From the IMG/VR virus record IMGVR_UViG_3300008266_000118: a DNA stretch of 64,000 nucleotides; one strand, written 5' to 3'. Positions within the stretch are counted from its first letter, which is position 1, and every line of letters begins with the position of its first letter. Made by a program: the position numbers and the translations under genes. The notes under the pieces were generated by a model that saw nothing but the letters and a program-made list of their open reading frames with translations, ran no database searches and was not told the origin of the DNA. Shown one piece after another: positions 9,158-50,518 of this stretch. The DNA is from a virus.

Positions 9158-9631
9158 TTATTTATTGGTTTGGCTCTCCTCTTGCTGACGGATTATTTCC
9201 GCCTCTAAAGCTTCTAGGTACGCTTCTTCAGACACATTAAACACATAACCGTTTAAAGTATCATAAATAGGCGCAGACATAAACAACAGTTTACCCTCTA
9301 GCTTTATTGGCTCATACTTGTCTAGTTCAAAAGATATCTCTTCTTTTCTCCATGCTTTTAAAGCAGCAAAAAGTTCTTTCTCCTTTGAGTCATCCATTAC
9401 AAGTATTTCAGCACCGTTCTGTAGCCTTTCTGTTTTAGCCTTTTTGTTAACACCTTCACCTTCAATGATTGCAAAATCCTTTCTCAAAAAATGTTCTTCA
9501 TCTGAAAGGTCTGCATACTCATCTTGGTATGCTTTAGTAAATTTCTTGGCAGCTAAACCTAGCTTGCTAAATGCTGCTTCAGACACTTGTTTGGCAGTGT
9601 TGTACTTAATTAAAAATTCTCCTTTTTTCAT
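9158..9631 (-). CDS. hypothetical protein
   Basis: 157-aa ORF in late operon. Confidence 0.4.
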   Translation of the reverse strand: MKKGEFLIKYNTAKQVSEAAFSKLGLAAKKFTKAYQDEYADLSDEEHFLRKDFAIIEGEGVNKKAKTERLQNGAEILVMDDSKEKELFAALKAWRKEEISFELDKYEPIKLEGKLLFMSAPIYDTLNGYVFNVSEEAYLEALEAEIIRQQEESQTNK

Positions 9632-9644
9632 GTTCCTTTTTTTT

Positions 9645-9938
9645 TTATTTTACGATTGCAAATGTAACTGTTGGATAGTCTTTTTGCAAGCCTAATAAAA
9701 CAGCATTTTGCACTTCTTCAAATGATGGATTAGCTCCTTCATGAGTATAAGTACCTACTTGTGCAATAGGGCTAAAACTTGCAGGTTGATTTTGTGTAGC
9801 TTCTGTGTATTTACCAATCTGAGCAACACCTAATGTAGGTTGATACTTAGATGGTGATACCATGTAAACTGTGATTTTTTGGTCTTTGTATTCGCTTACG
9901 CCATCTTGGGCTAGAATAACTCCTGTTGATTGTATCAT
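9645..9938 (-). CDS. hypothetical protein
   Basis: 97-aa ORF in late operon. Confidence 0.4.
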   Translation of the reverse strand: MIQSTGVILAQDGVSEYKDQKITVYMVSPSKYQPTLGVAQIGKYTEATQNQPASFSPIAQVGTYTHEGANPSFEEVQNAVLLGLQKDYPTVTFAIVK

Positions 9939-9969: not shown

Positions 9970-11487
9970 TTAAACTGCACCCCAAGCAGTACCATTATAA
10001 AAGTTTAATACTTGTGTCGTTGTGTTGTAAATTACTAATCCTTCGGCAGGAGTAGCAATGTTATCTCTTTGAGTTGTAGTCATTCTTGGTGGTAAGAAAC
10101 CTTTTGTAGTACTTTCAACATCAAGTTTTGCACTTGCATGACCGTAACCACCATTTCCCACTATCATTTGAGCAGTGTTTACTCTAACATAAGTAGTAGA
10201 AACTATAGGTAAATCACTTACAGATGATGTAATACCTGCATAGTCAGAAATTGTTATACCGCTAATATTCAAAGAAGCTGCTGCTCCTGCATTATTTTTT
10301 AAAGCAAATACGCCATTAGAAGTAGCTTCTAAGTATCCTCTTGTAGATATAATATAAGCCCCACCTGCAACAACAGTCATATTCAACCCACTACTTATTG
10401 AACTTCCTGTTGTCAATTCTCCTGTTCTACTTACCAAAAACTTACTACTTGAACCAACCTGCAAATCCATGAGGTTGTGGGTCATTCCTGTTATATCAGT
10501 TTCAGTAGCATTTAAAAAAATACCTGTAGCTGTTCCTGAAGTAGTAAAACCATTGCGATTTAATGTATAATCAATCCATAAACCTCTTGGGTTTGCAGTT
10601 GAATTTCCTGACGGAACAAAACTTGATTGAGCATAAATAATTGCCCCTGTACCACTTGTAGACCTATTGTTATTTGTTTTAAATTGATGAAATCCGCTTT
10701 GCCCATTATAGTCTAAAAAAGGCTGAGTAACCATATATTCTATATGATAACCTCCTCTTGCTATGGTTATGTAGTTTGTACTATTTGCACCACCATATAT
10801 GTAACCACTTCCTGCTCCTTGACCAAAATATATATTACCAAGACTATTAACTGATAACCCAAGAGTTGTATTATCAGACCAATACCATCTTTGTATATCT
10901 TGACCTACTCCTCCTTCAATCCTTACAGCAGGGTTAGTACCGTCACCTTTTACATGAAGTCTTGCAGATGCAGTAACGCTTCCTGTCCCAATATAAGCAT
11001 TTCCTAATACATCTAAAGTGTTAACAGCATCTTGTGTTCCACCTGATAGCTGTATAGCAGTACCGCTTGCACCTAAAACTATACTTCCACCAAGATTGTT
11101 TATTACATTTGTTTTGTTGCCAATATAAACAATTCTATATCTTGTGTTAGCAGGAGCAATGTGTAATCCATTAGCTGAACCTCCAACATCTTGAGTCATC
11201 CATATACCTCCAGAACCGTTGTTTTGAGTATTAGCCATATTAGATATTTTCAATCCAATAAAGTTTGTATCTGCATTAAAAGCAGTATAGTTTGGTGAAA
11301 TATCTAACCCAATTAAATATTGACCACTTGCTGTAGCAACTAATGAAGGGCGAATATAACCCCACCTTAACGTGTCGTTAGCTGTGTTTCTTGAAGTAAA
11401 TGTTCCTGTAACATCAAAAATAGAATCGTTGTTGCTTACAGAATTACGAATAGCGGATATACCGACTTGCGTAGTACTTAATTGCAA
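9970..11487 (-). CDS. tail fibre-like protein (G/S/T/N-rich); TTG start
   Basis: 505 aa, low-complexity Gly/Ser/Thr/Asn composition typical of fibres; predicted start codon is TTG. Confidence 0.45.
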   Translation of the reverse strand: MQLSTTQVGISAIRNSVSNNDSIFDVTGTFTSRNTANDTLRWGYIRPSLVATASGQYLIGLDISPNYTAFNADTNFIGLKISNMANTQNNGSGGIWMTQDVGGSANGLHIAPANTRYRIVYIGNKTNVINNLGGSIVLGASGTAIQLSGGTQDAVNTLDVLGNAYIGTGSVTASARLHVKGDGTNPAVRIEGGVGQDIQRWYWSDNTTLGLSVNSLGNIYFGQGAGSGYIYGGANSTNYITIARGGYHIEYMVTQPFLDYNGQSGFHQFKTNNNRSTSGTGAIIYAQSSFVPSGNSTANPRGLWIDYTLNRNGFTTSGTATGIFLNATETDITGMTHNLMDLQVGSSSKFLVSRTGELTTGSSISSGLNMTVVAGGAYIISTRGYLEATSNGVFALKNNAGAAASLNISGITISDYAGITSSVSDLPIVSTTYVRVNTAQMIVGNGGYGHASAKLDVESTTKGFLPPRMTTTQRDNIATPAEGLVIYNTTTQVLNFYNGTAWGAV

Positions 11488-18510: not shown

Positions 18511-18618
18511 ATAGCAAATATAAGTTAAAATAAAGCAAAAAAAAATAGCCCCTTAGAACTCAAAGTCCCAAGAGGCTACACAGACAAATCAAACATTAAA
18601 ACAACGTAACGAAGTTAG

Positions 18619-19689
18619 CTATTTGCTAGCTATTTCTAAAATTTTTCTATCTACATACGAATCAAAGGCAGCGTACTTTTCTTTGATACTAATCAACAGC
18701 GACTCTCTCTTTTCTCCATCCTGTTCTTTTAATGCATTATAAATCTCGGTATTTATTACCTTTTTCTCCTTCAATGTAGGCTCTTGCTTTATGTCAGAAG
18801 ACACACCCACTTCTTTAATCTCAGCTACTTCTTCAGGTGCTGCATACCCAACTTTTCCATACAATAGCTTACGAGGCTTCTCGTTTACTATAAAGTAGTT
18901 GATACACTCGCTTTCCTCTTTTCCAATAGGCTCTAAGTTAAACTCGTAGAATCCGTTATTAAAACTTACAATACCATCTTCTACCGCCTGTCTGTATTTA
19001 GAAATCAAGTTGTAATGAGAATCCTTTAAGATGCGCTCTAGGTCAAAAGGATTAAGCTTTAACTTAAATACCACTTTGTTATAAAGCTCGTCTAGCGTAG
19101 CACCCTTAACTTGCACGTTATAGGCGTAACAGAACTCAATAAATTGGTCTTTACTCTTGTTGTACAAGTCTGTCACAATCATCAAACCTTCTGTTAGCTT
19201 TTGATTTTTTTCGCTTTCCTTGCGCTCGATTTGACTCTCCTCGATTAATTCAAACAAGATGTTTTGACCTATAGCCGTGTTTATGTTTTGACCTTGTGAA
19301 TCTTTAACCAAAACTTCAGGGTGTTTTTTCAAGAAGTAGTGAGCTAACCTAACAATCCTGTTGGCTCTCTTTTGGTCTGCATCAGCCATCCTATCCTCAT
19401 CCTCTTCGGCATAATAGCTTTTCTCTATAAAGCACCTAGTATTCTTCGTGCCTTTTACATTTTCAATCTGTGATAAAGACCAAGACAATATATCTGACTC
19501 AATCTTTTCGTCCATCTCAGGGATTTCAAACAACTCGCCCCTCTTACTTACATAAGTAACGTAGCCTGTTTTCTTGTCTCTTTTACTGAACTGAAGTCTT
19601 CTGCCCAATTGGTTTTCAAATCGGTAGATTACTTTAAATGTGTGTTTTTTGCCTTCCATTTTCTTTTTTTTTAACAAAGATAACGTCAT
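18619..19689 (-). CDS. hypothetical protein; true start probably the Met at about 19659
   Basis: a TATCTTTG promoter box lies inside the first codons of the track ORF, so the downstream ATG (MEGKK) is the likelier start. Confidence 0.4.
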   Translation of the reverse strand: MTLSLLKKKKMEGKKHTFKVIYRFENQLGRRLQFSKRDKKTGYVTYVSKRGELFEIPEMDEKIESDILSWSLSQIENVKGTKNTRCFIEKSYYAEEDEDRMADADQKRANRIVRLAHYFLKKHPEVLVKDSQGQNINTAIGQNILFELIEESQIERKESEKNQKLTEGLMIVTDLYNKSKDQFIEFCYAYNVQVKGATLDELYNKVVFKLKLNPFDLERILKDSHYNLISKYRQAVEDGIVSFNNGFYEFNLEPIGKEESECINYFIVNEKPRKLLYGKVGYAAPEEVAEIKEVGVSSDIKQEPTLKEKKVINTEIYNALKEQDGEKRESLLISIKEKYAAFDSYVDRKILEIASK

Positions 19690-19708
19690 TTACATAAAAA
19701 AAACAAAC

Positions 19709-20962
19709 TTAATATATATATTCTCCTATGTGACCAATAGGGATAGAGCCATCACACCATACTTCCCTGCCCATCTCATTAAGCCTTTTGCAGAAATTAA
19801 TATCCTCGCCAATAAAAGTTCCATCGTCAAAACGACCATAATCAAAAGGGTGTGGCATGAACCTAATCGCAGACAATTTTATCAGCATAAAACCTGTAGG
19901 AATGGCAAATACCTTTTCTAAACCCTTTGACATATTGTAGTCGTAGATATTACCCTTATCATCTAGGTTTTTAACAGTGCCATGGGCGGGCAATTGTCGA
20001 ACATTATAACAACCTCCGACAACCTCTTTGTTATGGGCTAGCAGTTTTAGTATTCCGTCTTCAGGGAAACGCAAATCAGCGTCAACGAACATCAAATAGT
20101 CAGAACCATTTTTTATTGCACCATAGACTATCTCATTTCTCATTTGATGCAAATACGTCCCAATCTCAAAATCAAAATCTATATCGTAACCGCTTTGGCT
20201 AGTATTAACGATAGCATTAATGATTGAGCCAACAGTTTTTACATGAACCTCTCCTCTAGTTGGAACGCCTATGGTTATCTTTGTCCTTCTAACCAAATAG
20301 TCCCTGCCACTTTCAAATAAATTGTAATAGAAGTTCATGTTAACCCTTCCGTTACCGTGTACCACCATTGGAGCAAAACCTGTTTGATTGTTCACCAAAT
20401 AACCATCTATAACCCTAAAATCAGAAACATCTATTTTATATAAAGTTTGAAATGTGGCGCAGTTGTAATCAATAGGTATATTGTACTGCAAAACCTTTCT
20501 AATTAACCACTCTTGGTCATCAGCTTCTTCAGCAGGGGTCTCTTCCTCAAACAACTTAATAAAGAAGTCGGATTGCATATAAAAACCACCCGCATTAGGA
20601 TACTTGAATCTTTCATTGCTAGTGAAGTTTAATGCCATTTCAGGGTCATTCTTTCCTGTCCAACAATTTACTTCACCTGAAACATAATTGTCCGCAATTG
20701 GAAAGAAGTCAACGCTTTTCCTGACAAACAATGTGTCAAAAGCATCCGTAAATAAAAAGTCTTTTTCTTGTGGGTTTTGTTTAAGAAAGGCGTATATCCC
20801 ATGCATTTTGCTTGAAGCTCCACGCCACTCGCCTTCAATAACCATGTAACGCCATCCAAAGGTATTCAATGAAGCTTCTAGCATTGCACACCTTTCCCTT
20901 TTGTCGGTAACTGTTAGTACTATCATATTTTTCTTTCTTTTTTTTTCTTTTGTTCGGTACAA
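19709..20962 (-). CDS. two-domain glycosyltransferase (C-terminal GT2-like, DxD)
   Basis: LMFVDADLRF (DxD) and GEDINFCKR motifs in the C-terminal half; sits inside the structural module. Confidence 0.5.
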   Translation of the reverse strand: MYRTKEKKRKKNMIVLTVTDKRERCAMLEASLNTFGWRYMVIEGEWRGASSKMHGIYAFLKQNPQEKDFLFTDAFDTLFVRKSVDFFPIADNYVSGEVNCWTGKNDPEMALNFTSNERFKYPNAGGFYMQSDFFIKLFEEETPAEEADDQEWLIRKVLQYNIPIDYNCATFQTLYKIDVSDFRVIDGYLVNNQTGFAPMVVHGNGRVNMNFYYNLFESGRDYLVRRTKITIGVPTRGEVHVKTVGSIINAIVNTSQSGYDIDFDFEIGTYLHQMRNEIVYGAIKNGSDYLMFVDADLRFPEDGILKLLAHNKEVVGGCYNVRQLPAHGTVKNLDDKGNIYDYNMSKGLEKVFAIPTGFMLIKLSAIRFMPHPFDYGRFDDGTFIGEDINFCKRLNEMGREVWCDGSIPIGHIGEYIY

Positions 20963-20965
20963 ATA

Positions 20966-21006
20966 TATGCATAAAAACCAAAAACCCCCTACTTTTCAGT
21001 AGAGGG
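20966..21006 (-). terminator. rho-independent terminator after the Ser/Thr-rich structural gene
   Basis: minus-strand hairpin GCCCTCTACTG-AAAA-GTAGGGGG followed by TTTTTGGTTTTTAT. Confidence 0.6.
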
Positions 21007-21049
21007 CTTGAGGGGAACGTATGGAAAAAAAAGAAAAAAAAGGTTTCTT

Positions 21050-22096
21050 TTATAGAGGTAATGCTCTCCACTTGAACAAGTTCAAGGTGCTTCCTGAAGT
21101 TAAGGCAGTGGTATTGCTTGACACATAAGTAGTATTACTTAACACGCCCAACACCTTGCTAATAACAGGAGTAGAAACAGAAACCAAGTAATCACCACCC
21201 ACAACATCTACAGAAGACAAAGCTCCTGTTACAGTCTGAACTTGGGTTGTGCTATTTAAAGCACCTGCGGTAATTGCACTAGTTAAAGCTGAACCTGCAA
21301 CTCTATAACCTGCTGCTAGACCTGTGATAGTTCCATAAGAACCTAACAAGTCACTGTAGTTAGCAGTAGAAGCGGTAGTAGCGCCTGTGTCAAACTTAAC
21401 CAAAACAACCGCTTGCAAGGTAGAAATCTCTCCTTTGAAAGCTCCACTTCCACTATAGGTAGTGCTGATATAATCAATCACCACTTCAGTGTAGTAGTAG
21501 CCTGCTGTCAAGTTACCCAAATCAGAGTAGGTCAAAGCGTTACCTGAAGTAGCGTAAGCATACTTGCTTTGCAACGCAGCTACAGTACCTTTAGCAGCTT
21601 TACCTACAGTACCATTTGCAGCTGATAGGTTTGTGAAAATCACTTCAGTTTGGCTAGAGTATGAATCAACATTAGCAGAAGTTCCACCTACTACGAAGAA
21701 AGGAAAACCTGTAGTACCTGTCAATACGATGGTAGCAGTACCTGTTGCGACTACACTTAAATCTGTATCAGCATTGATGATTGCTCTAGCTTGATTGCTA
21801 ATAAGAGTAGCAGTAGTAGTAGCAGCTGAAGTGAAAGAAACCAACTTTACCTTAGGTAATCCTGTACTTTTACTGAATGCGTTTATATAGAAAGTGTAAA
21901 CTGTATTAGCTGCTGAAGTAGGAGTAATAGTGATAACACCTGCTGTCTCTGCTTGAGGAGCAGTAATACTCACATTTCTAACATTATACGCATCAGCTGA
22001 AGCTACAGAAGCGATGTTCAAAATACCGTCTGAACCTACGGAAACATCAGTTCCTAATGCGGTAACTGAGTTTAAAACTTTAATTGCACTTATCAT
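21050..22096 (-). CDS. Ser/Thr/Ala/Gly-rich abundant virion protein (decoration or major tail candidate)
   Basis: 348 aa with strong S/T/A/G bias; followed by a strong rho-independent terminator. Confidence 0.45.
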   Translation of the reverse strand: MISAIKVLNSVTALGTDVSVGSDGILNIASVASADAYNVRNVSITAPQAETAGVITITPTSAANTVYTFYINAFSKSTGLPKVKLVSFTSAATTTATLISNQARAIINADTDLSVVATGTATIVLTGTTGFPFFVVGGTSANVDSYSSQTEVIFTNLSAANGTVGKAAKGTVAALQSKYAYATSGNALTYSDLGNLTAGYYYTEVVIDYISTTYSGSGAFKGEISTLQAVVLVKFDTGATTASTANYSDLLGSYGTITGLAAGYRVAGSALTSAITAGALNSTTQVQTVTGALSSVDVVGGDYLVSVSTPVISKVLGVLSNTTYVSSNTTALTSGSTLNLFKWRALPL

Positions 22097-23491: not shown

Positions 23492-24520
23492 TTAATCTAC
23501 ATTAATCACTCTTTGTTTTACATTGATTCCCCAAGACTTTTGATTTTCCTTGAGTTTGTCAACGGGTTCTGCAACGGGTGAATTACCTTTATTTGAACCA
23601 TCGGGATTTGCAAAACGCTTCATTGTTCCTTTCTTGCCCATCTCAAAAGCATTCTCGGCAATCTTTTGCCAATTCTGACTGATGAACTTGTTGAACAAAA
23701 AATCTTTTGCATTTAACTCTCCTGTTTTCACATCAATGTAAGGGGCTAGCTCATTCATGTTGTAATTTTTCTTTGTCTCCTCGATGAACTCCTTAGTCAT
23801 TTCGACACCATATACATCACCGCCAACAAGTTTTTCTGCAACCGAATCAATTACTACAAAGTCATTAGCTTTTATGACTTCTTCATTTTTTGCAATTTGT
23901 TCGGGTGTCAATTGTTGCGCCTTGAGTTGGGTCTCATACTCTTGTAGTCCCTTTATGATTTCATTCTCGTTTACAGACAATTCTTCTCGGAGTTGCTTCT
24001 CAATTCGAGCTTTCTCTAGACGGCTCTTGCCCTCGAAGATACTCATCTCTTCTTCTATGGCTTCCTCTAGCTCTTCTCCCTCTAATTGGAACTCACTCTT
24101 AACTTTTGCTGCAATCATCTCTTTGAATGACATCTTGGATACATCGTTGCCTACAATCTTTTGGGCTATCTCTTTCAAATCCTTACCTAATGTCAGTGCT
24201 TTAATAAAAGGATTGTTCTCGTATTGTTCTACCTGATTACGATATTGCTCGTACTCCTGTAACTTCTTCTGAACGTCCTCACTTAAAGCTTCTTGAGTTT
24301 CGGCTTTTTTAGGTTCTTCTACCTGTTTCAGTTTGTCAAAGAGCGAATTAACTTCTAATTCTGTTGTTGTTTCTTCCGCAGGTTTTTCAACTACGGGTTT
24401 TTGTTCTGTTGTCTGTTCTACTGTTTCAACCACCGTTTCCGCAGTAGTTTCTTCATTTTCTTCATTTTTTTGCTCAGAAAGTGCTTTTAACACTTGGTCA
24501 GCATAATAATCGTTTACCAT
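23492..24520 (-). CDS. scaffolding protein candidate
   Basis: 342 aa, highly acidic Glu/Lys/Gln-rich coiled-coil composition; located between portal and capsid. Confidence 0.5.
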   Translation of the reverse strand: MVNDYYADQVLKALSEQKNEENEETTAETVVETVEQTTEQKPVVEKPAEETTTELEVNSLFDKLKQVEEPKKAETQEALSEDVQKKLQEYEQYRNQVEQYENNPFIKALTLGKDLKEIAQKIVGNDVSKMSFKEMIAAKVKSEFQLEGEELEEAIEEEMSIFEGKSRLEKARIEKQLREELSVNENEIIKGLQEYETQLKAQQLTPEQIAKNEEVIKANDFVVIDSVAEKLVGGDVYGVEMTKEFIEETKKNYNMNELAPYIDVKTGELNAKDFLFNKFISQNWQKIAENAFEMGKKGTMKRFANPDGSNKGNSPVAEPVDKLKENQKSWGINVKQRVINVD

Positions 24521-24814: not shown

Positions 24815-24845
24815 CCCCGATTTTTAGGTCGGGGCTTTATTTATT
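24815..24845. terminator. bidirectional terminator between the portal gene and the HTH moron
   Basis: CCCCGA-TTTTTAGG-TCGGGG hairpin flanked by A-run on the left and T-rich sequence on the right. Confidence 0.55.
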
Positions 24846-26901
24846 GCATTTGTTGCATTTCTTGTTTAGCTAAAGAAGCGTCAGCATTTATCGCTGCCAC
24901 ATTCTCTTTGCCTTGTTGCTGCATCTGAGCTTGCTGCATCTGAGCTTGTAATTGAGCCTGCTGCATCTGCTCTTCACGCATCTGCTTCTCTTTCTCAACC
25001 TTCTCAAAGTAATTATACATCTCGCTCTTATTGTCAATCTGTAGTAATTTAACATAGTTTGAAATAGACATACCACCATTCTGTGCTAGAGCAGATGCGA
25101 ATTGTTTCAACTGCTCTTTCTCTTGCTCTTGCAATACACCATCAGGGTTGATATCTAAAAGGAAGTCTTCAAACTGCATCCTCTTCATATCTTCTAGCTT
25201 TAGAACCTCAACCATGGCATCTCCAATAACTAAGGTCAAATCACTATCTTCCTTCTCAGGTAATACTAACTTGGCATAATCAGCACTAAACTCTAACAGG
25301 TTTTTAATACCTGTCATAATGTTTTTGTAGTACCATGACATACCTAATGTACTTTGCTGTAAGTTAGAGTTAACAACAGCGGCACTTTGATATTGAGCTT
25401 GGAAGCCACGAGTCTGTTGCGGGATATTAATGATATCAGCAATTACGCTATCATAGTAACTAATCATATCCATGTAATAACGAACATTCGGGTCTAGAGT
25501 CCAATCTAAAGTCTCTACTAAATTCTGTCTCTTTGAATCAGGTGTCTCGTCAATATCTGCACCCTCCAAAACAATCATATTAGATTGCTTTAATTGAGAG
25601 ATTACATCAGGGGCAGTCAAACCTTCAGGCAGTTTGCTAGCATTTATGACAAAGGATTTACCTACGGCTCTAGAAGACAATTCAATCATCTTAGTAGCAA
25701 AGGCATCTTTGATATCTTGGTATCTCTTTAACATACCTACGATACCCATGTTATTACCTAAGATAGTATTTGGCGTAACGGTTCTAAAACGCAATCTCTT
25801 GCGAGTCTTATCCATCTTATTCCATACCTGACCTTCGCTAACCTTACAATTTTTTAAATATTTGTTTCCAATATAAACACCTTCCCTCAGTACCTCTACC
25901 CACTCACCGTCCATCTTCTCTAAAGAGCGCCACTGACCTCTAACAACCATCACCTTTGGAACCCCATTATTTAACTGCCACCACACTAAACCATTTACAC
26001 CCACATAGGTATTATACTGCGCCCACATAGTTTGAGCTTTAGCCATGGTCTGCAAGTCTTCAATCTCATCTTCTTCCCAATCAAATTCATCAAGCAAATC
26101 AGGGACACTCATAGCCATGATAGACCCTGCGTAGTCATCATCCTCGTGTTGGTCATCATTCTTACTCATATCAACAATAGCAGATTCAGGCGGTACAATG
26201 CGCCATTTAATCATTCCGCCATGTTCATACACTTCTATGGTAGACTGCCCGCCTAATGAAATGTATTGACTGAATTTAGCCAACGTAGGCATATATCTAT
26301 TGGTAATGAGAATATGTTTGGATATGTTTTGGTAAGCAATCTCCATACTCTCTTGAAAATCTTCTAGGTATTTATCTAACTCCTCTTGGGTTTTGAAATC
26401 CCTGTCAATAGGTTTAAAACCAACACCTGTAGCCATCTCTATTATATCAAAGAAAACCTTTTGTTGAGCCTTCAACTTAATGAAGTCCATAATCTCCTTC
26501 TTAACCGATACGGCATCTTTAGAGTATGCAGTTACATTTATGGTCTTAGGTAATGGCTCTAGCATTTGCCTAACAACACCATCAATGTGCAATAATATCT
26601 TGGTAATATCCATACCCCTAGTCATAGGGAAACGAGTGCTTTGCCCTAATTCATCTTGCACAAAGAAACCGTAATCAGAAGGATTCTGCCTGCCGAAGAA
26701 ATATTGGCATTGAGCTAAATAACTAGTAACATATCTATTATCATCAGTACCAATAGTTGCTGAAGTAGCATCAGCTCCGAAAGAAAATAAACGCCTATTC
26801 CACATTGAGGCTATAAACTGTAAATTCTTCCTGTATTCATCATCATCAAACTCAACAGCTTGAGGTGGTTGAACTCCTATTCCTGAATAAAATGTACTCA
26901 T
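24841..26901 (-). CDS. portal protein candidate
   Basis: 686 aa, immediately downstream of the terminase candidate; Q-rich C-terminal tail; promoter box TACATTTG 18 nt upstream. Confidence 0.45.
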   Translation of the reverse strand: MSTFYSGIGVQPPQAVEFDDDEYRKNLQFIASMWNRRLFSFGADATSATIGTDDNRYVTSYLAQCQYFFGRQNPSDYGFFVQDELGQSTRFPMTRGMDITKILLHIDGVVRQMLEPLPKTINVTAYSKDAVSVKKEIMDFIKLKAQQKVFFDIIEMATGVGFKPIDRDFKTQEELDKYLEDFQESMEIAYQNISKHILITNRYMPTLAKFSQYISLGGQSTIEVYEHGGMIKWRIVPPESAIVDMSKNDDQHEDDDYAGSIMAMSVPDLLDEFDWEEDEIEDLQTMAKAQTMWAQYNTYVGVNGLVWWQLNNGVPKVMVVRGQWRSLEKMDGEWVEVLREGVYIGNKYLKNCKVSEGQVWNKMDKTRKRLRFRTVTPNTILGNNMGIVGMLKRYQDIKDAFATKMIELSSRAVGKSFVINASKLPEGLTAPDVISQLKQSNMIVLEGADIDETPDSKRQNLVETLDWTLDPNVRYYMDMISYYDSVIADIINIPQQTRGFQAQYQSAAVVNSNLQQSTLGMSWYYKNIMTGIKNLLEFSADYAKLVLPEKEDSDLTLVIGDAMVEVLKLEDMKRMQFEDFLLDINPDGVLQEQEKEQLKQFASALAQNGGMSISNYVKLLQIDNKSEMYNYFEKVEKEKQMREEQMQQAQLQAQMQQAQMQQQGKENVAAINADASLAKQEMQQMQ

Positions 26902-26952: not shown

Positions 26953-28794
26953 CTATACTTTCAACTCTTTTTCATACCACACAGGTTTCATTGACCCATT
27001 CTGCATCTCATACTTAACCATTTGAATCTTCCTAATAATCTTTACCTGAGTCCTATTACTCAGTATATCTCCCGAACCCCAACCATATAGTGCAGCCATA
27101 AAAGCATCCAAAATGTCCGTATTATCGTTAGACCCTTTGGTCGCATCTATTAATAGTTCTTTGAAGTAGACCATGTGGGAGTATTTCTTGAAATATATGT
27201 TTGCTGCCTCTATCTGCCAACGGAGAATAATATCTGCTCGGTAGAACCATGGCTTAGACCTATCCACCCAACCCGACTTATTCAAGTCTTTGCGTAGCAT
27301 AATCATCTTGCTAAGTCCTTCGTTAATCAGCATTTGTAGCAAATTTTCTGCACCCGCATTTAACTCGCACATTATCTTGCATCTGCCATATTTATTGTAG
27401 TGCTTTGCTAGGTTCATTAATTGAATATTGGCGTACTCTATACTTCTTGGTCTTTCTAAATAGATTGCAACAGGGCAGAATTGAATCTCACCCTGTGGGT
27501 CAACCCCTTTAGTTACTACGGCAGCGTACTTTGAATTACCACTGCTGCTACTAGTTAAATCAGAGGTCATAATGGTATCCCCTCCAATAATATAGTCTAC
27601 ACCTTCTTTTGGCTGCTCTAATATTAAAATAGGGCTATCTTTAACAGGGTCGGCAATAACAGAAGTGGCAGATACATTTATCTTATGAGGAACAGGTTTA
27701 AACTCCTGTTTTACCTTTGGCAGTTCTGTTAGCTGTGCATTAATCTTTTCTACGGTATATTCATCAAACAAACCACCACCCGCAAAGTTGAAGATATCAT
27801 TAATGTCTAATGGGTTGTTTTTAATGTAAGCGTTTAATTGGCTTTTGTCATCTAACTTTTCAAGTTCTTCTCGCCTTCTTAAAATCTCTTCTCGTGCCTT
27901 CTCATGGTTAGAGTGACCATTTACCATGTGCTTTCCAAAAGTAGCAGGCAGAAACAGAGTTTTAATCCTTAGAGCTTCAGCATTAGTGTATATATCCTGT
28001 ATCCTTCTGATGTCTTCTGAACTGATTGTATCTTCAGCTGTTCCGCCCATCATCAATCCACCGACAATCTTATTGATGGAATGGTCTGTAAAACACTCTA
28101 TCGCTGATGGGTAAAACTTCATCAGCCTTGGCATTAAAGGAGCTTCATCTGCAAAGCCATACATAGCACCTGAACCCGAAAACGCTGTGGCAGCTTTATC
28201 ACTCTCCTGTGTATCCCTGAAAGACAACTCCGATTCAGCGTACTTCTCTTCGCCATACTGATTGAAATACTTCATACCTATTTTTAGGTACGCATCATTT
28301 TTAGTCTGATTCTTATTTATTAGGTCGGGCTTAATAACAGGATTCATTTCTTCATAAGCCACCATTGTTTTCTCTGTAAACAAAGAGCTTAATGTAGTTT
28401 TATCCTTAGAAGTTATAATGCTTTTAGAATTGGGGAATACACGAGAGAAATAAAAGGGTAAATTCATCCCCCAACTTGAAAAACCGATACCCCTCGCTTT
28501 TAAGAAAAACATAGCATACCCATCATCCATAGATTGCTTGAACTTCTGCGATATAAGAACATCTGCATCCCTAACTGTTGGGTAATACATAAGCCCTCTA
28601 ATCCTATCCTTCAGCATGATTTCTTGAGCATAATAGTAAAGCATACCATTGACATCTTCACTATACCCTTCTACCCAATACTTCTTCTGCTTTGCCCAAT
28701 ACTTCTCCTCTTCATAAGCACTCTTAAACACGGTAGGATGTGGCTTTCTCGTAAAGAAAGGAGCAGGCGCTTTTATCTTATCAACTATTATCAT
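26953..28794 (-). CDS. terminase large subunit candidate
   Basis: 613 aa, sits upstream of the portal with ATGA overlap to a small upstream gene; no clean Walker A seen by eye. Confidence 0.45.
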   Translation of the reverse strand: MIIVDKIKAPAPFFTRKPHPTVFKSAYEEEKYWAKQKKYWVEGYSEDVNGMLYYYAQEIMLKDRIRGLMYYPTVRDADVLISQKFKQSMDDGYAMFFLKARGIGFSSWGMNLPFYFSRVFPNSKSIITSKDKTTLSSLFTEKTMVAYEEMNPVIKPDLINKNQTKNDAYLKIGMKYFNQYGEEKYAESELSFRDTQESDKAATAFSGSGAMYGFADEAPLMPRLMKFYPSAIECFTDHSINKIVGGLMMGGTAEDTISSEDIRRIQDIYTNAEALRIKTLFLPATFGKHMVNGHSNHEKAREEILRRREELEKLDDKSQLNAYIKNNPLDINDIFNFAGGGLFDEYTVEKINAQLTELPKVKQEFKPVPHKINVSATSVIADPVKDSPILILEQPKEGVDYIIGGDTIMTSDLTSSSSGNSKYAAVVTKGVDPQGEIQFCPVAIYLERPRSIEYANIQLMNLAKHYNKYGRCKIMCELNAGAENLLQMLINEGLSKMIMLRKDLNKSGWVDRSKPWFYRADIILRWQIEAANIYFKKYSHMVYFKELLIDATKGSNDNTDILDAFMAALYGWGSGDILSNRTQVKIIRKIQMVKYEMQNGSMKPVWYEKELKV

Positions 28795-33177: not shown

Positions 33178-36100
33178 CTATTTTTTAGCTACTATAGGGT
33201 ACTTCACAACCCCTTTATCTTCAATGTGAGTTTTCAAAAAGGCGTTATATATTTTCCTGAATTGCTCTCTAGCCATTTGTTTTTTAACCTCTTCTGTTAC
33301 ATTACGATTTAAGATAATATCTTTTAATGCCTGACTATTTAAAACTTCTTCTTGGGTAGGGTTTACTTTTCCATACAATTCTTTATTAGCCTCATCTTTG
33401 GCTTTTGCCATAACACTTTTAGGCATTACATACAAATAACCTTTATCCTCATCCTCTTTCAAAAACAAAGACAACTTGGCTACATCTTTAGGCTTAATGT
33501 TTGATTCGGATAGTTTAATCAAATCCTCTTTATTTTTAAACTCATACTGATATCCAAACTCAGGTTCAAGCGCACCAATAAAAGCATTTATTCTATCCAC
33601 CTTAGGATTTTGTATGTTATTTAAAGCCGAACCCGCATCCCTTAAAGTTCCACTAGCCGTTACAAAGGCAATCGTTTTTACTATTGGATACATTGCAGCA
33701 TCAGCGCTAGGTAAACCTGCTTCTTTCAATGCCTCAGATTCTTTCTTCCACTCTTCAGTCTCCCTCTTAAATAATTCATATGTAGCAAACATTGAACCAC
33801 CTATTTGAGGTTCTATTGAAAGAGGTTTATTAGGGTCTAGAGGAGTTCCTTTAGGGTCAAAAGAAGGGTCTGTTTTCCTAATCTCTTCAGTGTATTTTTC
33901 TTTTTGATTCTCCCAATATAAATTAGCTGCAATACCTACAGCAATATCTCCAATAACACCTGCGCTTCCCAAGAAAATATCAGTACCAAGTCCAACCAAA
34001 AATTGAGTTAAAGATTTCTCATACAAATATACTTGCTCTTCATCATCATCATCTAAAGACTTGGCGATTGCAGATAAGGTTAATTGAGTTAATACGGATG
34101 CGGTGGCTCTAAAAGCAGCTTGTTGAGCAATATAAGCAGCCATGGATTTGACGTTTTCATAAGTCTCTTCATTGGTTAGTGAAGAACGATTAAAGGCTAA
34201 ACGTCTTGCATTTTTCAAGAACTCTTGATGTGTATTTACTTGAAAAGACTTGAACATATACAGCATTTGAGCTAAACCTGTATTGCTAAGTTTTTTACCT
34301 TGTTGTGCTGAAGATGATATAGAGTTCAATTGTTGCTGCCAAGTCTCTCCCGCATTTAAGGCGTTTTCATCTATACCTTCATTTTCTATTTTTTCTAAAA
34401 TTTGCTCATCAGTAATGCCTTTGTTTGTTTTCTTCAGGTAATCTATATAACCTGCAATTATATTAAACCTAGACACCCTGTAATCTCCAAAATCTAATAA
34501 TTCTTCAGTAGTAACTTCTTTTCCTAAAACTCTTCTTACTTTATTTATGGCAGGCTTTATTATATCTCCTAATTTAAATTTCTCTCCAATCGTACGAAGA
34601 CCTGAAACCGTAGAGCGAGTACCGCCCATCAAATATTCTGCGGGATAAGATTTTATATTTGGAAGAGCTAAACTCTTAAACACCCTTTTAACAATAGTGC
34701 TATTGTCAATTATCTTGTCGCTTAACTCTTTGTTTGATAGTATTTTATAAGTTAACCTAGAAGTCTTTGGGCTTAAAATAAAATTAGCAAATAAGGCGGG
34801 TATTACTTGCTTTGGTAACTGAAACGGATGGTTCAATACAAACCCGTAATACATGGAAGATATTGAACTTGCAAGCTGATTTAATATCAAATTCTCGTCA
34901 TTCAAGCTAACATTTCCATAAGTCAATTCTCTCTTTACTTGGCTTATCAATGCGTTTTGCATCACCTTTGCATCAGACAAAACCTTATCTTTCACCAAAG
35001 ATTGAATACCTACTTTATCTGAGTATATAGAGTTTATGATATCGTTGATTTCTTGTTGACCATAAGCCACCAATAAATTCTGCCAAAAACCTTTAGAGAA
35101 GTTTTCTCTTAAACCTATACTGTAATTACCTGTTGCAACCGACCTTTTCTTAGCCCTGTCTTGAGTTCTAGACACACCTGAGTAATCAGATAGAATAGAT
35201 TGTATTGTAGCTTCATCCTCTTGTGTAACATCCTTGCTGATGTCCATAGCAGAAAACCTAGGGAAGTAGTTTACAATACCTCTAAAAGGAAGACCTAAAC
35301 CAATCTCCATTCCATTAGCAAAGTCAGGTCTTGTCTTTGCAAACTCCCCTATCAAATAGTCATATAAATCTTGCTCCTTGGCATCCAACTTATCTTGAAT
35401 ACTTTCACGAGTTACGTCTTCTACAAGTTCATATGTAACACTTTCTTTTCCAAAAACAAGGTCTTTTATAACACCAAAACGCTCTAGAGCTTTCAATGCA
35501 TTTTTAGCTTTTTCAATATTAACTTTAGTTCTTTGGTTCAAGTTTTGTGCAGCCATCATTTGCTCGTACAAATTCGCTGCACTTCTAGCATAAACGGTTG
35601 TATCATTCTTGAATTGCTCTTGCTGCTCCTCTGCTGTCAATCCTTCGTCATACTGATTTATAAAAGCAAAGGTTTCAACGGCTACAGAACTTTCAAGCGC
35701 CTTAGAACCTAATGCCCTCATCTTTTTCTCAAAACCTGTCATGGTATTGTTGTGGTAACGCTCAATCTTAGAAATCATGCTATTCCACTTACCAAAAACA
35801 AAAGAGGTCAACGCTGCTTCTGAAACAACACCAAAAGCTTGAGATGTAATTGTAGCGGGTACTGACCTAAGAGACTTTTCTGTGATATTTAGTAACTTCC
35901 TAATCTTACCTGACACATCCTTTAAAACTTTGTATAGACCCTCTTTTCTTTCTGCTTGAGATAATTTTGAGCGAAACTTATCATACCCCATGAAGTTGCC
36001 ATCATACAATATGCCATCTAAAACATTAGATAAAAGAATTAACTCATTTAGACTGAACATTGATAAGTCTGCATTCTGAAGAAGAGAGAAGTCTAAAACC

Positions 36101-37113
36101 ATAGACTCTGTGCTAGCTAAATCGAAATCCTCTTTAAACTCTTCAGCATTTTGCTCTAGCATTATTTTGATATTCTTCGCTACTTCCTTTGCCTTGTCCG
36201 TTTTGGATATCTTATCCAATAAAGCTGCATCAGCATCTAAAATAGCCGACTGTTCTTCTAGTTTTTGTACAAACGCTTTATAATCTTCAAACGAATTGAT
36301 ATCTGTATCTTCAAATACACCTTCTTTTATCAGTGATTCATACTCCTCTTCCAAGGCTAAATCTGCCAACATCTCGTTTATTGCGTTAATATTTCTTTTG
36401 TACTCAGCAATATAACTACTTTCTTCATCAATAAAATCTTTCAACTTATCATCTATATTGCCAAAAGTAGAAGCACCTTTACCTCTTCTATCTAAAAACT
36501 CTTGCAGTAAAGCTGCATAAGTATCTAGGTCAGAAACCTCCATAGGAGAAGGGAAAGATATATCTTTGATAAACTTCTTATTACTAGCAGTTAGTTTATC
36601 CTTGCTTTTTAACTTACCTATTTCCTTTAGTAAGCCCTTTACTTTTTCCACTTTATCAAAATAAACTTCAGCGTCTTGTTGCGACTGAACGGTTAAAAGA
36701 AAGCGAGCAAAGGTTTTTTCATTCCTAATTTTACCAATAGCCTTTTCTATAGATTCACTAGAAGATATTTTATTTGTCCTTAAAAAATCTCTAGCTTCTT
36801 CTTGAAGAGAATCGATTTTACTTTTCTCCTCTTTAGCTCCTGTTTTTGAACCCTCTTCTTCAGCAGTATAAATCATCTTATTTAACTGCTTGACGGTTTT
36901 CTTTATATATTCTCTAAGTTTTTTGCCTACGCCTAAACTCTCAATAAACTTGTTTTCTACTATCTTATATCCGTCAATGGATATTTTCTTGTCATTAGAA
37001 AGAAGCTGTAATCCACCATTGGCAAGCCAAGCATTAAACTCAGCCTCACCCATCTCTTTAGGTAGGTTATATTTCTTTTGAGCCTCTTCGCTAATATTAA
37101 CAGTACAAGCCAT
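33178..37113 (-). CDS. giant virion protein (1311 aa), probable internal/ejected protein
   Basis: long coiled-coil-rich ORF next to the polyvalent protein and upstream of fibres and terminase. Confidence 0.45.
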   Translation of the reverse strand: MACTVNISEEAQKKYNLPKEMGEAEFNAWLANGGLQLLSNDKKISIDGYKIVENKFIESLGVGKKLREYIKKTVKQLNKMIYTAEEEGSKTGAKEEKSKIDSLQEEARDFLRTNKISSSESIEKAIGKIRNEKTFARFLLTVQSQQDAEVYFDKVEKVKGLLKEIGKLKSKDKLTASNKKFIKDISFPSPMEVSDLDTYAALLQEFLDRRGKGASTFGNIDDKLKDFIDEESSYIAEYKRNINAINEMLADLALEEEYESLIKEGVFEDTDINSFEDYKAFVQKLEEQSAILDADAALLDKISKTDKAKEVAKNIKIMLEQNAEEFKEDFDLASTESMVLDFSLLQNADLSMFSLNELILLSNVLDGILYDGNFMGYDKFRSKLSQAERKEGLYKVLKDVSGKIRKLLNITEKSLRSVPATITSQAFGVVSEAALTSFVFGKWNSMISKIERYHNNTMTGFEKKMRALGSKALESSVAVETFAFINQYDEGLTAEEQQEQFKNDTTVYARSAANLYEQMMAAQNLNQRTKVNIEKAKNALKALERFGVIKDLVFGKESVTYELVEDVTRESIQDKLDAKEQDLYDYLIGEFAKTRPDFANGMEIGLGLPFRGIVNYFPRFSAMDISKDVTQEDEATIQSILSDYSGVSRTQDRAKKRSVATGNYSIGLRENFSKGFWQNLLVAYGQQEINDIINSIYSDKVGIQSLVKDKVLSDAKVMQNALISQVKRELTYGNVSLNDENLILNQLASSISSMYYGFVLNHPFQLPKQVIPALFANFILSPKTSRLTYKILSNKELSDKIIDNSTIVKRVFKSLALPNIKSYPAEYLMGGTRSTVSGLRTIGEKFKLGDIIKPAINKVRRVLGKEVTTEELLDFGDYRVSRFNIIAGYIDYLKKTNKGITDEQILEKIENEGIDENALNAGETWQQQLNSISSSAQQGKKLSNTGLAQMLYMFKSFQVNTHQEFLKNARRLAFNRSSLTNEETYENVKSMAAYIAQQAAFRATASVLTQLTLSAIAKSLDDDDEEQVYLYEKSLTQFLVGLGTDIFLGSAGVIGDIAVGIAANLYWENQKEKYTEEIRKTDPSFDPKGTPLDPNKPLSIEPQIGGSMFATYELFKRETEEWKKESEALKEAGLPSADAAMYPIVKTIAFVTASGTLRDAGSALNNIQNPKVDRINAFIGALEPEFGYQYEFKNKEDLIKLSESNIKPKDVAKLSLFLKEDEDKGYLYVMPKSVMAKAKDEANKELYGKVNPTQEEVLNSQALKDIILNRNVTEEVKKQMAREQFRKIYNAFLKTHIEDKGVVKYPIVAKK

Positions 37114-37116
37114 TTT

Positions 37117-37614
37117 TTACAATTTAAATATCATTTTTTCAGCAACCAAAAAACCCGCCTTATCCTCAATATCTACCAATGTGGCACAAGCGTCAATATA
37201 AAACTTCATTGCATCTTGCTGTATTTTCAGGAACTGCAATAAATGGTTGTAGGTCATTTGGTCTAAAGTACAAACCTCAGAAGCTGCTTTTTTATACATC
37301 CCTGAAACCTTATTCTCCATGGCTAAAGCTAATTCAACTATTTCATACAAATTACTAGCCTCCTCAACAAACTCTTCAATAGCGGGAGTCTGAAAGTAAG
37401 AACCTTGACCTGTTACATATTCATAGTGAATAAGGAAATGCTCTCTCTCTTCTTTACTCTCGTTTAAAAAGTACGCTTCCGCCTTTAGGAAACCTTTCTC
37501 GTTACAAAGATTTGCTAGTTGAACATAGAAAGAAGATTGCGCTATCTCTATTGAAATCAAAGGTTTTAGGACTTCCATAACCTTTTCGTCTAACTTGTAC
37601 ATTTTATGACTCAT
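37117..37614 (-). CDS. ferritin-like four-helix-bundle protein (Dps-like?)
   Basis: helix-pair motifs SSFYVQLA ... ESKEEREHF (ExxH) ... ELALAMENK; only a partial di-iron signature. Confidence 0.3.
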   Translation of the reverse strand: MSHKMYKLDEKVMEVLKPLISIEIAQSSFYVQLANLCNEKGFLKAEAYFLNESKEEREHFLIHYEYVTGQGSYFQTPAIEEFVEEASNLYEIVELALAMENKVSGMYKKAASEVCTLDQMTYNHLLQFLKIQQDAMKFYIDACATLVDIEDKAGFLVAEKMIFKL

Positions 37615-37633
37615 AATCTTTCAAATTTAATAT

Positions 37634-40600
37634 TTATTTACCCCATTTACAACTAGTGGAGACGATTACACCTGACTCCTGAAGCTTGTCCCTAATCTCA
37701 TCTATATGTTCCATTATTTTGGCAGCCTCTTTAATAGCTTTTTTATCCGCTTCTTTCAAAGCTTTTTCAGCCTTTTTCTTGGCTGTTGGACTTGCAGCCG
37801 TCTTTGCGCTTTCCTCTTGCAGTAATGCATCAAAAGCTTTCGTAACATTCTCTAGCTTGGCTTTATCCCCGATAGCTCTAGCAGTTTTATAATCCTCAAC
37901 AGTTATTTCTTCCATAGACTTAGAGCCATCATACTTGGCGTATGTGTTTTGAATCTGTTGTGGAGATAAACCTGTCTCTTCTGCTATCGCCAAAACATTT
38001 TTAGGAAACCCTTGCTTCTTCTTTTTAATATCCACACCAAGCATCTGAGAATAGATATTCTCCATCTTTTCGTTTAACTCTATATCTATATCGCTATTTA
38101 TTATTCCGTTATATATTTCAGTTAACCACTCTTTGAACTTATCGAATAACCTCTGTAAACCTTTACTAGGAGCTTTACCGTCAGATAGGTACTTTTCAAA
38201 ACCTCTTGCGAAAAATTCACTAGTTTCAATAGTCCACCCTTTAGTTCCTGCACTTTCTACAATTTCATTCTTTTCATTATCAGTAAGGTAATGTTCAAAA
38301 ACGTGAGCAAGTTCATGTAGTGGAGTAGAAACATTAGGGTCAGATAAAGCATAAATAACCGCTTGTCCGTCCATATTCACCATCATTGCTCCTCTAGCCT
38401 TAACAGCATCTTTTTGAAACTTTATTGATTCTTCTATACTTACAGCGTTTTCGTCAAATACAACATAGTTAAAACCTCTTGCAGTTTTAGATGTTGCGCC
38501 TCTTGATATACTTTCAGCAGCGTATTTTATTCCATCAATTCCGTTTTCAAGTAAGAATAATGATGCAGCTTTATCTCCGCCTAAAACATAGCCAATATTT
38601 TCATAAAAATATTTCCCTACTTCAGCTATATTATAATGACCTAATGATAATCCATTTTTTGAATATAAATCAAAACCATATTTACTATCACCTTTAATTG
38701 TGTATCCTTTTGCTATTAAAGCTTCTTTTATTTTATAAAAATTTTCTTCACTAACAGGTTTATCCCACTCCAACCAAGTGTATTCGCTTTGTTCTTTTCC
38801 CTTAAAGAGAGAAACTTTATATAGACTTCTAGATAAATTAAATTTATCAGAATTTTTACTTAAATATGAGTAATAATTAGCATTACTTTTTAATTCGTTT
38901 TTTACAAAATTAATTACCTTATCTAGTTTGGAGGCTCTAGAAGATTGATATTGCATTGCTTCGTACAAAAACCTTCTAGATTGTTCTACCCCTTTAAATA
39001 TTATATCTGTACCATTTTTAGCATTCTCTTCAGATACACCTGCCTTAATAAACATATCGTATACTGAATTGTATTTATTTTTATCAAAATCCCTTAATGT
39101 TTTTTTAGCCTGCTCAATTTTATCCTGACTATATTCATAGTCACGCATCATTTTAATAACTAACGGATGTTTTTCGTCAACTTTTATTTTAAGTTGCTCT
39201 TGATAATAACTACTGATATCATCTAAATATTCTTTAAATTTAGCTAGATTAAAAATTCTACCTGTAAACCAACTATAAAACTCTTCATTGCTTTCATCTA
39301 ATGAAACAAATAATTTATCAAAAATAGAGTTCTCCTCTAATTCTTTATTTTCAAACTTTATTTTAGCTAATTTTTTAGCGTAAAGCTTTGCAATATCCTT
39401 TAAGTCGGTAAAATATAATCCCCATCCAAAAGCTTGCGCACCTTCACCTGTACCTATCTTTTCGGTAGTAAATTTATCAAACTCATATGGAGAACCGTGC
39501 CAAGCTGCCATCTGCATTTTTACCCCTTGAGGCAAATCTTTCTCACTAGATTTTTTAAATTGTACAGTCTTATAGATTTCTGACTTTTCAACACCCTTAC
39601 GTTTAGCCATAGCACCTATCATTTTATCCATAACAACAGCTTGCGCTAACGCCTGAACACGATTTAAAGCAAACAAGTCTCTACCGATATTGTATAGGTC
39701 TCTAATGTTTTTAGGATTAACACCTGAAACTTCTGCTACAGACTTCACCTCTGCTTCACTAACCTCTTCTTCTTTAACAGGCGCTTCTTCAGCCTTCTCA
39801 GTAGGTGTAGGTTGTTCTTTACCTAATTTAACATCTACAACTATTGGTAGTGAGCCATTAGTTTTGATTTGATTTGATATTTTTTCAATCTCGTTTAGCT
39901 TTGATTCAAGTCCTTTAATATCATTGTTGATTAAATCAAGTACCAAATCAAGTGCTAACCTTTGCTCTTTTGTATATGTAGGTATAGCTTCGTATTCTTT
40001 TCGCACCCTATCAAGAACGCTTGAATGAAATCTCTCAAGATATTCTCTACTATCAACAGCATCAGTCCATTTCAGATTGCTTTTATCAAAATCTTCTATG
40101 GTTTTTACAGACTCATCAATAGGTGTATAACCATTTTTATTTTTAGCTATCCAATCTCTAAGTTTTTCAACCTTTTCCATTAAATATCTAACATCGGGCT
40201 TATCTCCTCTTGAAGAGAGTTCACGCAATATATCCCCTGCATTTTCAATTCTTTCTCTCCATACTTGCGAGTTTCCCCACAAACCTTTTTCCTTTCCAAC
40301 TGTATTTTCTGCGGTTGCATCTTGAACCTGAAATGCTGTTCCAAATTCTATTTCCCCTTGAGCAGGTTCACCCTTATCAGACTTTACTTCTTCTTTGGCT
40401 TCACCTTCTTGGATAACAGGCTCTTTATTTGGTTCTCTCTTATCAATAATACTTGAAGTACCGCCATCCTCTGCGCCTCCAACATCGGTTCTTGCGCTAG
40501 TATCTCCTGAACTAATTTCATTTTCCACTGTGCTTGACTCTTGTATGGCATCTTTGTTTTGTTTTGAATAAGCCTCATCTACGGAAGCCCGTGTTTTAAC

Positions 40601-45377: not shown

Positions 45378-45446
45378 AGATACTTTTTCCTAAGAAATAA
45401 AACAAACTTGCTTTTTTTATTTGGATTTGTCTTTTTTTTAAATATA

Positions 45447-45454
45447 CCTTTGTA
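45447..45454 (+). promoter_or_regulatory. -7 box TACCTTTG for the rightward replication operon
   Basis: TAnnTTTG in the divergent intergenic region 45378-45478. Confidence 0.4.
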
Positions 45455-50474: not shown

Positions 50475-50518
50475 CAATTATGTTGTTTTTTGTAATATAA
50501 AATATCATATGTATATTT

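Follow-up and report, generated by a model that had tools for sequence, protein, structure and literature searches.

The 64,000-nucleotide viral record IMGVR_UViG_3300008266_000118 of IMG/VR, referred to here as the window, comprises essentially all of the ~64-kb genome of a crAss-like podophage that branches deeply and is uncultured. In its late structural block, on the minus strand, it encodes a glycosyltransferase (GT). Upstream lies the gene of a 348-amino-acid (aa) protein rich in Ser, Thr, Ala and Gly, here ST348, which directly follows the gene for the major capsid protein (MCP); downstream lies the next late gene, that of p356 (Table 1). Both halves of the GT are predicted to be GT-A enzymes, its gene is an optional cassette in related phages, and its presence co-varies with the C-terminal module of ST348. 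These observations suggest a virion O-glycosylation system centred on that module, a reading to which we give an even chance.

An earlier note on this DNA had described a 417-aa two-domain GT directly downstream of the 348-aa protein. The two domains and the position stand; the length is 405 aa. We place the start at ATG 20926 because most full-length homologues begin with MIVLTV or MKVLTV, two of them with a short MEKKI extension; the TTG start at 20962 falls in an A-rich leader just past a terminator. No transmembrane segment is apparent on reading the sequence, which is not a formal test. Among the homologues searched, the fusion of these two domains is found only in this phage group.

The N-terminal domain is a single unit of ~210 aa. 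A profile search matches its residues 11-211 (417-aa open reading frame numbering) to Pfam GT_PLOD (PF25342) with an E-value of 1.6e-9 and 37.7 bits, above the gathering cut-off of 27, and a precomputed PF25342 match exists for 9/10 full-length GT homologues. The only sequence match in the PDB is mimivirus R699 (4.6e-7). Conserved positions comprise NCW, N111, D137-Q138, H190-G-N-G and the DxxD motif TDAFD (D61 and D64), which is invariant in the family. R699 is a collagen galactosylhydroxylysyl glucosyltransferase that holds Mn2+ through D83 and D86 and lines its sugar pocket with W118, N138, D162-Q164 and H216 (PMC9546862; PMC12279948). Once chain numbering is shifted by +3, the HMMER alignment brings W, N, DDQ and H of the window domain into register with these pocket residues; the DxxD, which lies outside the aligned stretch, is equated with that of R699 by its motif.

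The second domain belongs to a different GT-A family and has its own DxD. Its residues 225-415 (same numbering) match phrog_1574 (3.5e-21), and GT residues 290-398 show a weak Pfam GT2 resemblance, all of it below the cut-offs: 20 vs 27 bits for Glyco_trans_2_3, 13.7 vs 23.3 for Glycos_transf_2 and 15.9 vs 28.8 for Anp1. The closest structures to the domain model are A197 of Sulfolobus turreted icosahedral virus (STIV), tied with Mnn9. The DxD motif FVDADLRF singled out in the earlier note is indeed present; alignments of 15 and of 42 homologues show no variation at its two Asp residues (D282 and D284) or at E374, D375 and H399. Because both halves are predicted GT-A folds with intact, conserved metal and catalytic motifs, the nucleotide-sugar fold that any glycosylating role presupposes is expected to be in place.

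We assembled 25 distinct related loci from a metagenome scan (13 loci) and exact-protein look-ups; scans of IMG/VR with ST348, as a single sequence or as a profile, gave no match. The GT is present at 13 loci (GT+) and absent from 12 (GT-), always at the same site between ST348 and p356, and where it is absent p356 directly follows ST348. All 13 copies are intact. Judged by how closely their p356 and ring protein 1 resemble those of the window, the loci fall into three backbones, A to C, each of which holds both GT+ and GT- genomes; for instance, L009 (GT+) and L011 (GT-) share 99% nucleotide identity in p356 and 97% in ring protein 1. Across GT+/GT- pairs, nucleotide identity is 95-97% for the capsid gene and 92-99% for p356 vs 48-66% for the ST348 module. 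Among relatives, the MCP itself shows 78-93% identity and varies in a pattern unrelated to GT presence. The GT is thus an optional single-gene cassette. Another presence/absence polymorphism of the structural module is formed by homing-endonuclease genes (HNH/NUMOD4, GIY-YIG and DUF559), variably inserted in the relatives L028, L030, L033 and L034 before the portal gene or between the genes of ring protein 2 and the muzzle protein.

ST348 is a mosaic, the last ~90 residues of which come in several unrelated versions. Type I (…ALNSTTQVQTVTG…VS[VI]STPV…LSNTTYVSSNTTALTSGS…), which is that of the window, is accompanied by the GT at 9/9 loci, and type I′ at 3/3. The GT is found at 0/7 loci with type II, 0/2 with type III and 0/3 with a type I″-like module or one other; a single locus with a type II-like variant, L004, has a GT (1/1) that is only 48-60% identical. 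Overall, 12/12 loci of types I and I′ are GT+ vs 1/13 with other modules (Fisher's exact p = 2.5e-6, uncorrected for shared ancestry). Two predictions made from the module before the look-up were both correct: P0096 (type I′) was GT+ and P0064 (type I″-like) was GT-.

The DNA that lies between module and GT behaves differently. In backbone C, a comparison of GT+ with GT- loci gives 94-95% identity for the stretch from the module to the GT site vs 50-63% for the module. Between backbones A and B, module and GT are each 79% identical, vs 59% for the DNA between them, 67% for the N-terminal part of ST348 and 58% for p356. That the intervening DNA does not go along with module and GT speaks against their having simply hitch-hiked as a single contiguous block.

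With L004 set aside, only two ST348 alignment columns, 296 and Ser308, fully distinguish the 12 GT+ from the 12 GT- loci, and Ser308 is replaced by Thr in the nearest GT- relatives. With low confidence, we regard Ser308, which lies within the motif VS(V/I)STP, as a candidate acceptor site. The association of GT and module is a correlation; it suggests a link between the GT and ST348 by real but indirect comparative support. Of the earlier proposal that the GT O-glycosylates its Ser/Thr-rich neighbour, the enzyme fold is borne out in prediction, and the neighbour is tied to it, indirectly, by module co-variation and the two predictions.

Two further observations concern these modules. The GT of the P0009 lineage (L004, L005 and L006) is divergent, with 48% and 60% identity in its two domains and FADGWDT in place of FTDAFDT, and has no precomputed GT_PLOD match; it may differ in specificity, having evolved together with another kind of module. 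We also considered whether the type I module is N-glycosylated at its NST/NTT sequons and rejected this, for the sequons also occur in the GT- variants L011 and L029. To our knowledge, the known cytoplasmic N-glycosyltransferases are not GT-A enzymes.

ST348 ends with an intrinsic terminator and T-tract that is kept in GT+ and GT- relatives alike. It is genuine, because its pairing is maintained through compensatory changes: RNAalifold finds 12 pairs, 6 of them with such changes, over 9 lineages. It is not the strongest terminator in the window, as the earlier note had it; at -20.2 kcal/mol it ranks third, behind hairpins at 18579..18545 (-), after p356 (-22.4 kcal/mol), and near 55.9 kb (+; -21.5 kcal/mol). 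Between the ST348 stop codon and the terminator lies a conserved polypyrimidine tract, CCTTTTTTTTCTTTTTTTTCC, at 21010-21049 (-), which is kept within each backbone regardless of GT presence.

Past the terminator, a box reading TATATTTG and an A-rich leader precede the GT, and we propose from their sequence that they constitute the cassette's own promoter. The promoter element of p356 is found at the same place in GT+ and GT- relatives. Junctions of the cassette are clean: GT- loci pass from the ST348 terminator to the p356 promoter box, and GT+ loci have a promoter box, leader and GT interposed. In backbone C, direct copies of the promoter box ATATATTTGCA bracket the cassette (intergenic region of L015 vs L016, L018 and L029), the GT box being a direct repeat of the p356 box; recombination between the two would precisely delete or insert the GT gene. 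Late co-expression of the GT may be expected, because the gene has its own copy of a structural-gene-type promoter box. Throughout the window, 9 promoter-like sites of the form TTTG-N17-23-TAnnTTTG were found vs 4.9 expected by chance, several of them at operon starts.

The extreme composition that had been reported for the protein after the capsid gene is confirmed: S+T makes up 27.3% of ST348 and S+T+A+G 49.4%, with 8.9% charged residues and no Cys. By comparison, S+T reaches 14% in the capsid protein and 9% in the GT, and S+T+A+G reaches 32% and 22%, respectively. That ST348 is an abundant virion protein is inferred from gene position and terminator. By fold evidence, it is probably the counterpart of the auxiliary capsid protein (AUX) of crAss001, gp36. 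Of the earlier alternatives, a capsid-decoration or a tail protein, its resemblance to this outer-surface protein favours the first over the second.

Sequence comparisons give this relationship no support. ST348 belongs to no Pfam or PHROG family and has no significant sequence match in the PDB; a Foldseek search gave no match of E <1e-3, hhalign against gp36 returned a probability of 0.1 (E 0.6), hence no detectable homology, and a profile search of the PDB did not retrieve gp36. Comparison with crAss001 gp33 was equally negative, by hhalign for ST348 and by BLASTP for p356. The only other large window protein close to ST348 in composition is p505 (505 aa; 9970..11487, minus strand), with 42.6% S/T/A/G and 21.4% S+T. 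It has no Pfam family in our scans of the window, which took in open reading frames (ORFs) of at least 120 aa minus three overlapping ones (9318-9695, 41325-41690 and 49019-49441). It may be a fibre or other surface protein, hence another possible glycosylation target.

Relatives of the two GT domains differ in number and placement. Those of the C-terminal domain are common, with 7,991 matches in metagenomes and more than 510 in IMG/VR. In four podophage genomes (Microcystis phage Mel-JY34, two T7-like and one P22-like) they come directly after the capsid gene, the P22-like order being coat, hypothetical protein, methyltransferase, GT and tail adaptor. Two IMG/VR contigs have richer clusters: L035 (5995-7700) shows a GT-methyltransferase-GT arrangement with the C-domain relative two ORFs past the major head gene, and L039 (5986-7800) carries two phrog_1574-type GTs and a small methyltransferase downstream of a head-related gene with a weak head maturation protease match. 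Presumably, this combination of GTs with a methyltransferase resembles the glycosylation loci of mycobacteriophages. The N-domain family is rarer, with 408 representatives among 1.84 billion. Its standalone members on the IMG/VR contigs L117, L133 and L135 (~32-35 kb) are 211-aa PLOD-like GTs, ~37-39% identical to the window domain, clustered with a 355-aa GT-B-like and a 253-264-aa GT2-like protein; the three-GT cluster sits between replication/DNA-methylase genes and the terminase gene.

We can now outline how the system would work. The 405-aa protein would be a soluble bifunctional GT on an optional single-gene cassette, transcribed from its own host-type (TAnnTTTG) promoter and, because this is placed after the ST348 terminator, expressed with the structural genes. 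It would O-glycosylate the surface of the virion, most likely at the variable module that ends ST348, where Ser308 is the candidate site. The A197/Mnn9-like C-terminal domain would put the first sugar on the protein, and the PLOD/R699-like N-terminal domain would then extend it to a disaccharide with a host uridine diphosphate (UDP)-hexose. The characterised relatives of the latter, R699 and LH3, are protein-glycan glucosyltransferases that add glucose onto protein-linked galactose (PMC9546862; PMC12279948). What we infer in this outline is which acceptor and sugars are involved, in what order the two steps run, when the gene is expressed, and that ST348 is an AUX.

Several points weigh against virion glycosylation through ST348. 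A glycan on a virion protein is a prediction from folds, motifs and co-variation, and both the identity of the promoter and the late timing are read from sequence alone. The GT is dispensable, because half of the relatives do without it. Loci are phylogenetically non-independent (they collapse to 22 distinct ST348 variants at 95% identity), the module adjoins the GT, so that linkage may explain part of the association, and one GT+ lineage, L004, has a type II-like module. Gal-hydroxylysine is the acceptor of R699 and LH3 as characterised, and the Pfam scans of window proteins returned no match to a 2-oxoglutarate/lysyl hydroxylase or a collagen repeat. Finally, standalone N-domain relatives sit before the terminase gene, not beside capsid genes, and thus give no support for a capsid link of that domain alone.

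It is unlikely, in our view, that the GT instead modifies a host envelope glycan during infection, be it lipopolysaccharide O-antigen, capsule or a lipid-linked intermediate. Its place beside the capsid genes would then be a tolerated moron site, and its activity could block superinfection or keep progeny virions off cell debris. The cassette does have a moron-like anatomy. However, such a role leaves unexplained the module co-variation across three backbones and the two successful predictions. No membrane segment or GtrA/GtrB partner was seen by reading (again not a formal test) or in the Pfam scans, which covered ORFs of at least 120 aa and returned no integrase or lysogeny module either; the proposed GT promoter resembles those of late structural genes, and relatives of the enzyme recur right after capsid genes in unrelated phages.

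Glycosylation of another virion protein, such as the capsid protein, the muzzle or fibres, strikes us as rather improbable; the module link would then stem from joint recombination in the past or from a structural fit at the capsid surface. In its favour, p505 is also at hand in the window, and C-domain relatives follow capsid genes in genomes without a noted ST348 homologue (no search there was aimed at ST348). The capsid gene shows no co-variation, being nearly the same in GT+ and GT- members of a pair. Adjacency of module and GT would favour their co-transfer, but in backbones B and C the intergenic DNA between them follows the backbone, not GT status. Moreover, only two ST348 columns separate GT+ from GT- loci, one of them a Ser that becomes Thr in the nearest GT- relatives.

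A GT acting on phage DNA, a host protein or a small molecule, for example in anti-defence, is very unlikely. DNA-hypermodifying phage GTs are well known (bioRxiv 10.1101/2023.12.21.572611), and accessory genes of phages often serve counter-defence. We nevertheless set DNA glycosylation aside, because no base-modification genes were found: the window ORFs of at least 120 aa include no recognised hydroxymethylase, TET/JBP protein or DNA methyltransferase. A nucleotide-sugar gene was not found among them either. The GT gene is also part of the late structural block, with a promoter box of structural type in front of it, and its homology is to protein-glycan and capsid-associated GTs. The DNA glucosyltransferases of T4 have the GT-B fold, not GT-A. 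That the gene is a decaying or non-functional passenger is hardly credible: about half of the relatives lack it, but it keeps all its catalytic residues in the 13 intact copies and, across backbones, it is as conserved as the capsid protein (79% for A vs B, next to 58% for the adjacent p356).

Virion O-glycosylation through the ST348 module can be taken one step further, to an exchangeable 'glyco-cassette' among crAss-like phages: a swappable AUX surface module paired with a matched bifunctional GT that places a disaccharide at about one site per capsid subunit, candidate Ser308. We put this forward as a tentative extension, possible but doubtful.

The wider genome agrees with a crAss-like affiliation. 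Beyond p356, where tblastn matches in relatives start at residues 6-12 of the longer ORF, the minus strand encodes ring protein 1, a 221-aa protein, ring protein 2 and a 1402-aa muzzle protein; Pfam matches are strong for the last (crAss_MUZ, 1.4e-44) and weak for the rings (CrAss_Ring_1 and CrAss_Ring_2). Of the proteins tried by tblastn against GenBank phages, only the muzzle protein found matches, in human-gut crAss-like phages at ~25% identity; TerL and ST348 had none in 50,697 GenBank phage records, and a 6-kb region had no match there at the DNA level. By these searches, the lineage is without a cultured relative. Its host is predicted to be a member of the Bacteroidota, with which the TAnnTTTG promoter boxes, A-rich leaders and BT4734-like primase are consistent.

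Several other features of the genome are worth recording. Where the structural module meets the replication module, two promoter motifs form a divergent pair (45375-45452). None of the window ORFs of at least 120 aa was recognised as a DNA polymerase. A ferritin-like ORF (37117-37614; Pfam Ferritin, 7.8e-12) lies between giant ORFs of 1311 and 1850 aa (region 33178-43186, minus strand); these two have no Pfam match and, by position, could be a crAss-type virion RNA polymerase or cargo proteins. ARAGORN calls one tRNA, at 56217-56290 (+), labelled His with the anticodon printed as atg. On the opposite strand to this call, at about 54.8 and 55.4 kb, two hairpins resemble tRNA T-arms (GGTTCGAAT-like) and may be degenerate or missed tRNA genes.

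Table 1. Position of the GT cassette, its surroundings and other recognised features of the window.
Feature	Position	Strand	Remarks
TerL	26953-28794	-	first of structural gene order
Portal	24841-26901	-	after TerL
Scaffold-like protein	23492-24520	-	after portal
MCP, 444 aa	22126..23460	-	weak Pfam SU10_MCP match (2.5e-4); order TerL-portal-scaffold-MCP
ST348, 348-aa Ser/Thr/Ala/Gly-rich protein	21050..22096	-	directly after MCP gene
ST348 C-terminal module, variable (residues ~262-348; window version: type I)	21053..21313	-	co-occurs with GT
Ser308 of ST348, motif VS(V/I)STP	21173..21175	-	alignment column separating GT+ and GT-
Intrinsic terminator and T-tract after ST348	20982..21009	-	from terminator scan
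GT upstream region: TATATTTG box, then A-rich leader	20927..20981	-	fits Bacteroidetes -7 consensus TAnnTTTG
GT, 405 aa	19709..20926	-	between ST348 and p356
GT N-terminal domain, residues 1-212	20291..20926	-	predicted PLOD/LH3/R699-like GT-A; DxxD (TDAFD), NCW, DDQ, HGNG
GT C-terminal domain, residues ~213-405, stop codon included	19709..20290	-	predicted minimal GT-A, A197/Mnn9-like, phrog_1574; DxD (FVDADLRF), ED, His
Putative Bacteroidetes-type promoter TTTG-N21-TATCTTTG before p356	19675..19707	-	pattern match
p356, next late gene, 346 aa from conserved ATG	18619..19659	-	downstream boundary of GT cassette
Promoter motifs at operon starts	19675-19707, 20962-20969, 45375-45452, 50489-50519, 52450-52480	-, -, both, +, -	
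SPFH/Band 7 protein	1380-2210	+	
BT4734-like/PriCT primase-helicase	47022-49082	+	
M42/M28-like aminopeptidase	57767-58747	+	
DUF932 protein	60834-61718	+	

Experiments have demonstrated virion glycosylation by phage-encoded enzymes in only a few systems, chiefly in mycobacteriophages, whose recognition by antibodies it alters. If our reading of the GT is true, it extends to the Bacteroidota-infecting crAss-like assemblage, with a concrete enzyme-substrate pair and a candidate residue, and the common, unannotated phrog_1574 GTs beside capsid genes of aquatic podophages might be capsid-modifying enzymes. Were the glyco-cassette also true, interchangeable capsid glycan coats would exist in a phage group that includes the most abundant human-gut viruses; through the phrog_1574 GTs found by capsid genes of cyanophage-, T7- and P22-like podoviruses, capsid glycosylation would be widespread in aquatic phages. 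A single protein that joins a collagen-type glucosyltransferase domain to an A197-like one is in any case an unusual architecture, which could serve as a compact two-step protein glycosylation tool.

Glycosylation of capsids or virions by virus-encoded GTs is already known from mycobacteriophages, STIV and giant viruses. The earlier note had called it rarely documented in phages and, for Bacteroidetes phages, undescribed. The concept is not new, because it is documented for mycobacteriophages (Che8 and further phages of cluster F1; Freeman et al. 2023, Cell Host Microbe 31:1216, as cited in PMC11256854); the second half of the statement holds, in that the literature searched contains no report of virion glycosylation for Crassvirales or Bacteroidota phages.

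With respect to known enzymes, R699 and human LH3/PLOD3 have tandem catalytic and accessory Rossmann domains, and R699 requires an antiparallel dimer for activity. The window N-terminal domain, of ~210 aa, lacks the accessory second Rossmann domain and, unlike LH3/PLOD3, the lysyl hydroxylase domain; it is fused instead to an unrelated second GT-A domain. For the other half, A197 is the GT by which STIV is proposed to glycosylate its capsid protein (PMC10551542). STIV, whose glycosylated capsid protein is B345, infects archaea and has a capsid of the double jelly-roll kind; A197 consists of one domain, is essential to STIV and has unproven substrates, and the window C-terminal domain is only ~19% identical to it.

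On the side of the proposed target, crAss001 gp36 (PDB 7QOF) consists of a PH-like domain split by a flagellin/FliD-like insert and stands 1:1 with the capsid protein on the capsid exterior. ST348 has no detectable sequence similarity to it and appears to have an extra C-terminal module of ~90 residues. Glycosylation of gp36 is not reported: the word stem 'glycos' is absent from PMC10172136.

The mycobacteriophage systems offer the closest functional likeness. There, according to papers that cite Freeman et al. (such as PMC11256854), phage GTs act in the cytoplasm and decorate abundant virion proteins, giving a glycan coat, and the GT genes, like the cassette described here, are accessory and variable between relatives. 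These are actinobacterial siphoviruses, whereas the window phage is a crAss-like podovirus known from its genes alone. Their GT genes lie near the right genome end (PMC11256854); the window GT lies beside its proposed target gene. Unlike the mycobacteriophage systems, it is a single fused two-domain enzyme, and its proposed target is a module of an auxiliary capsid protein.

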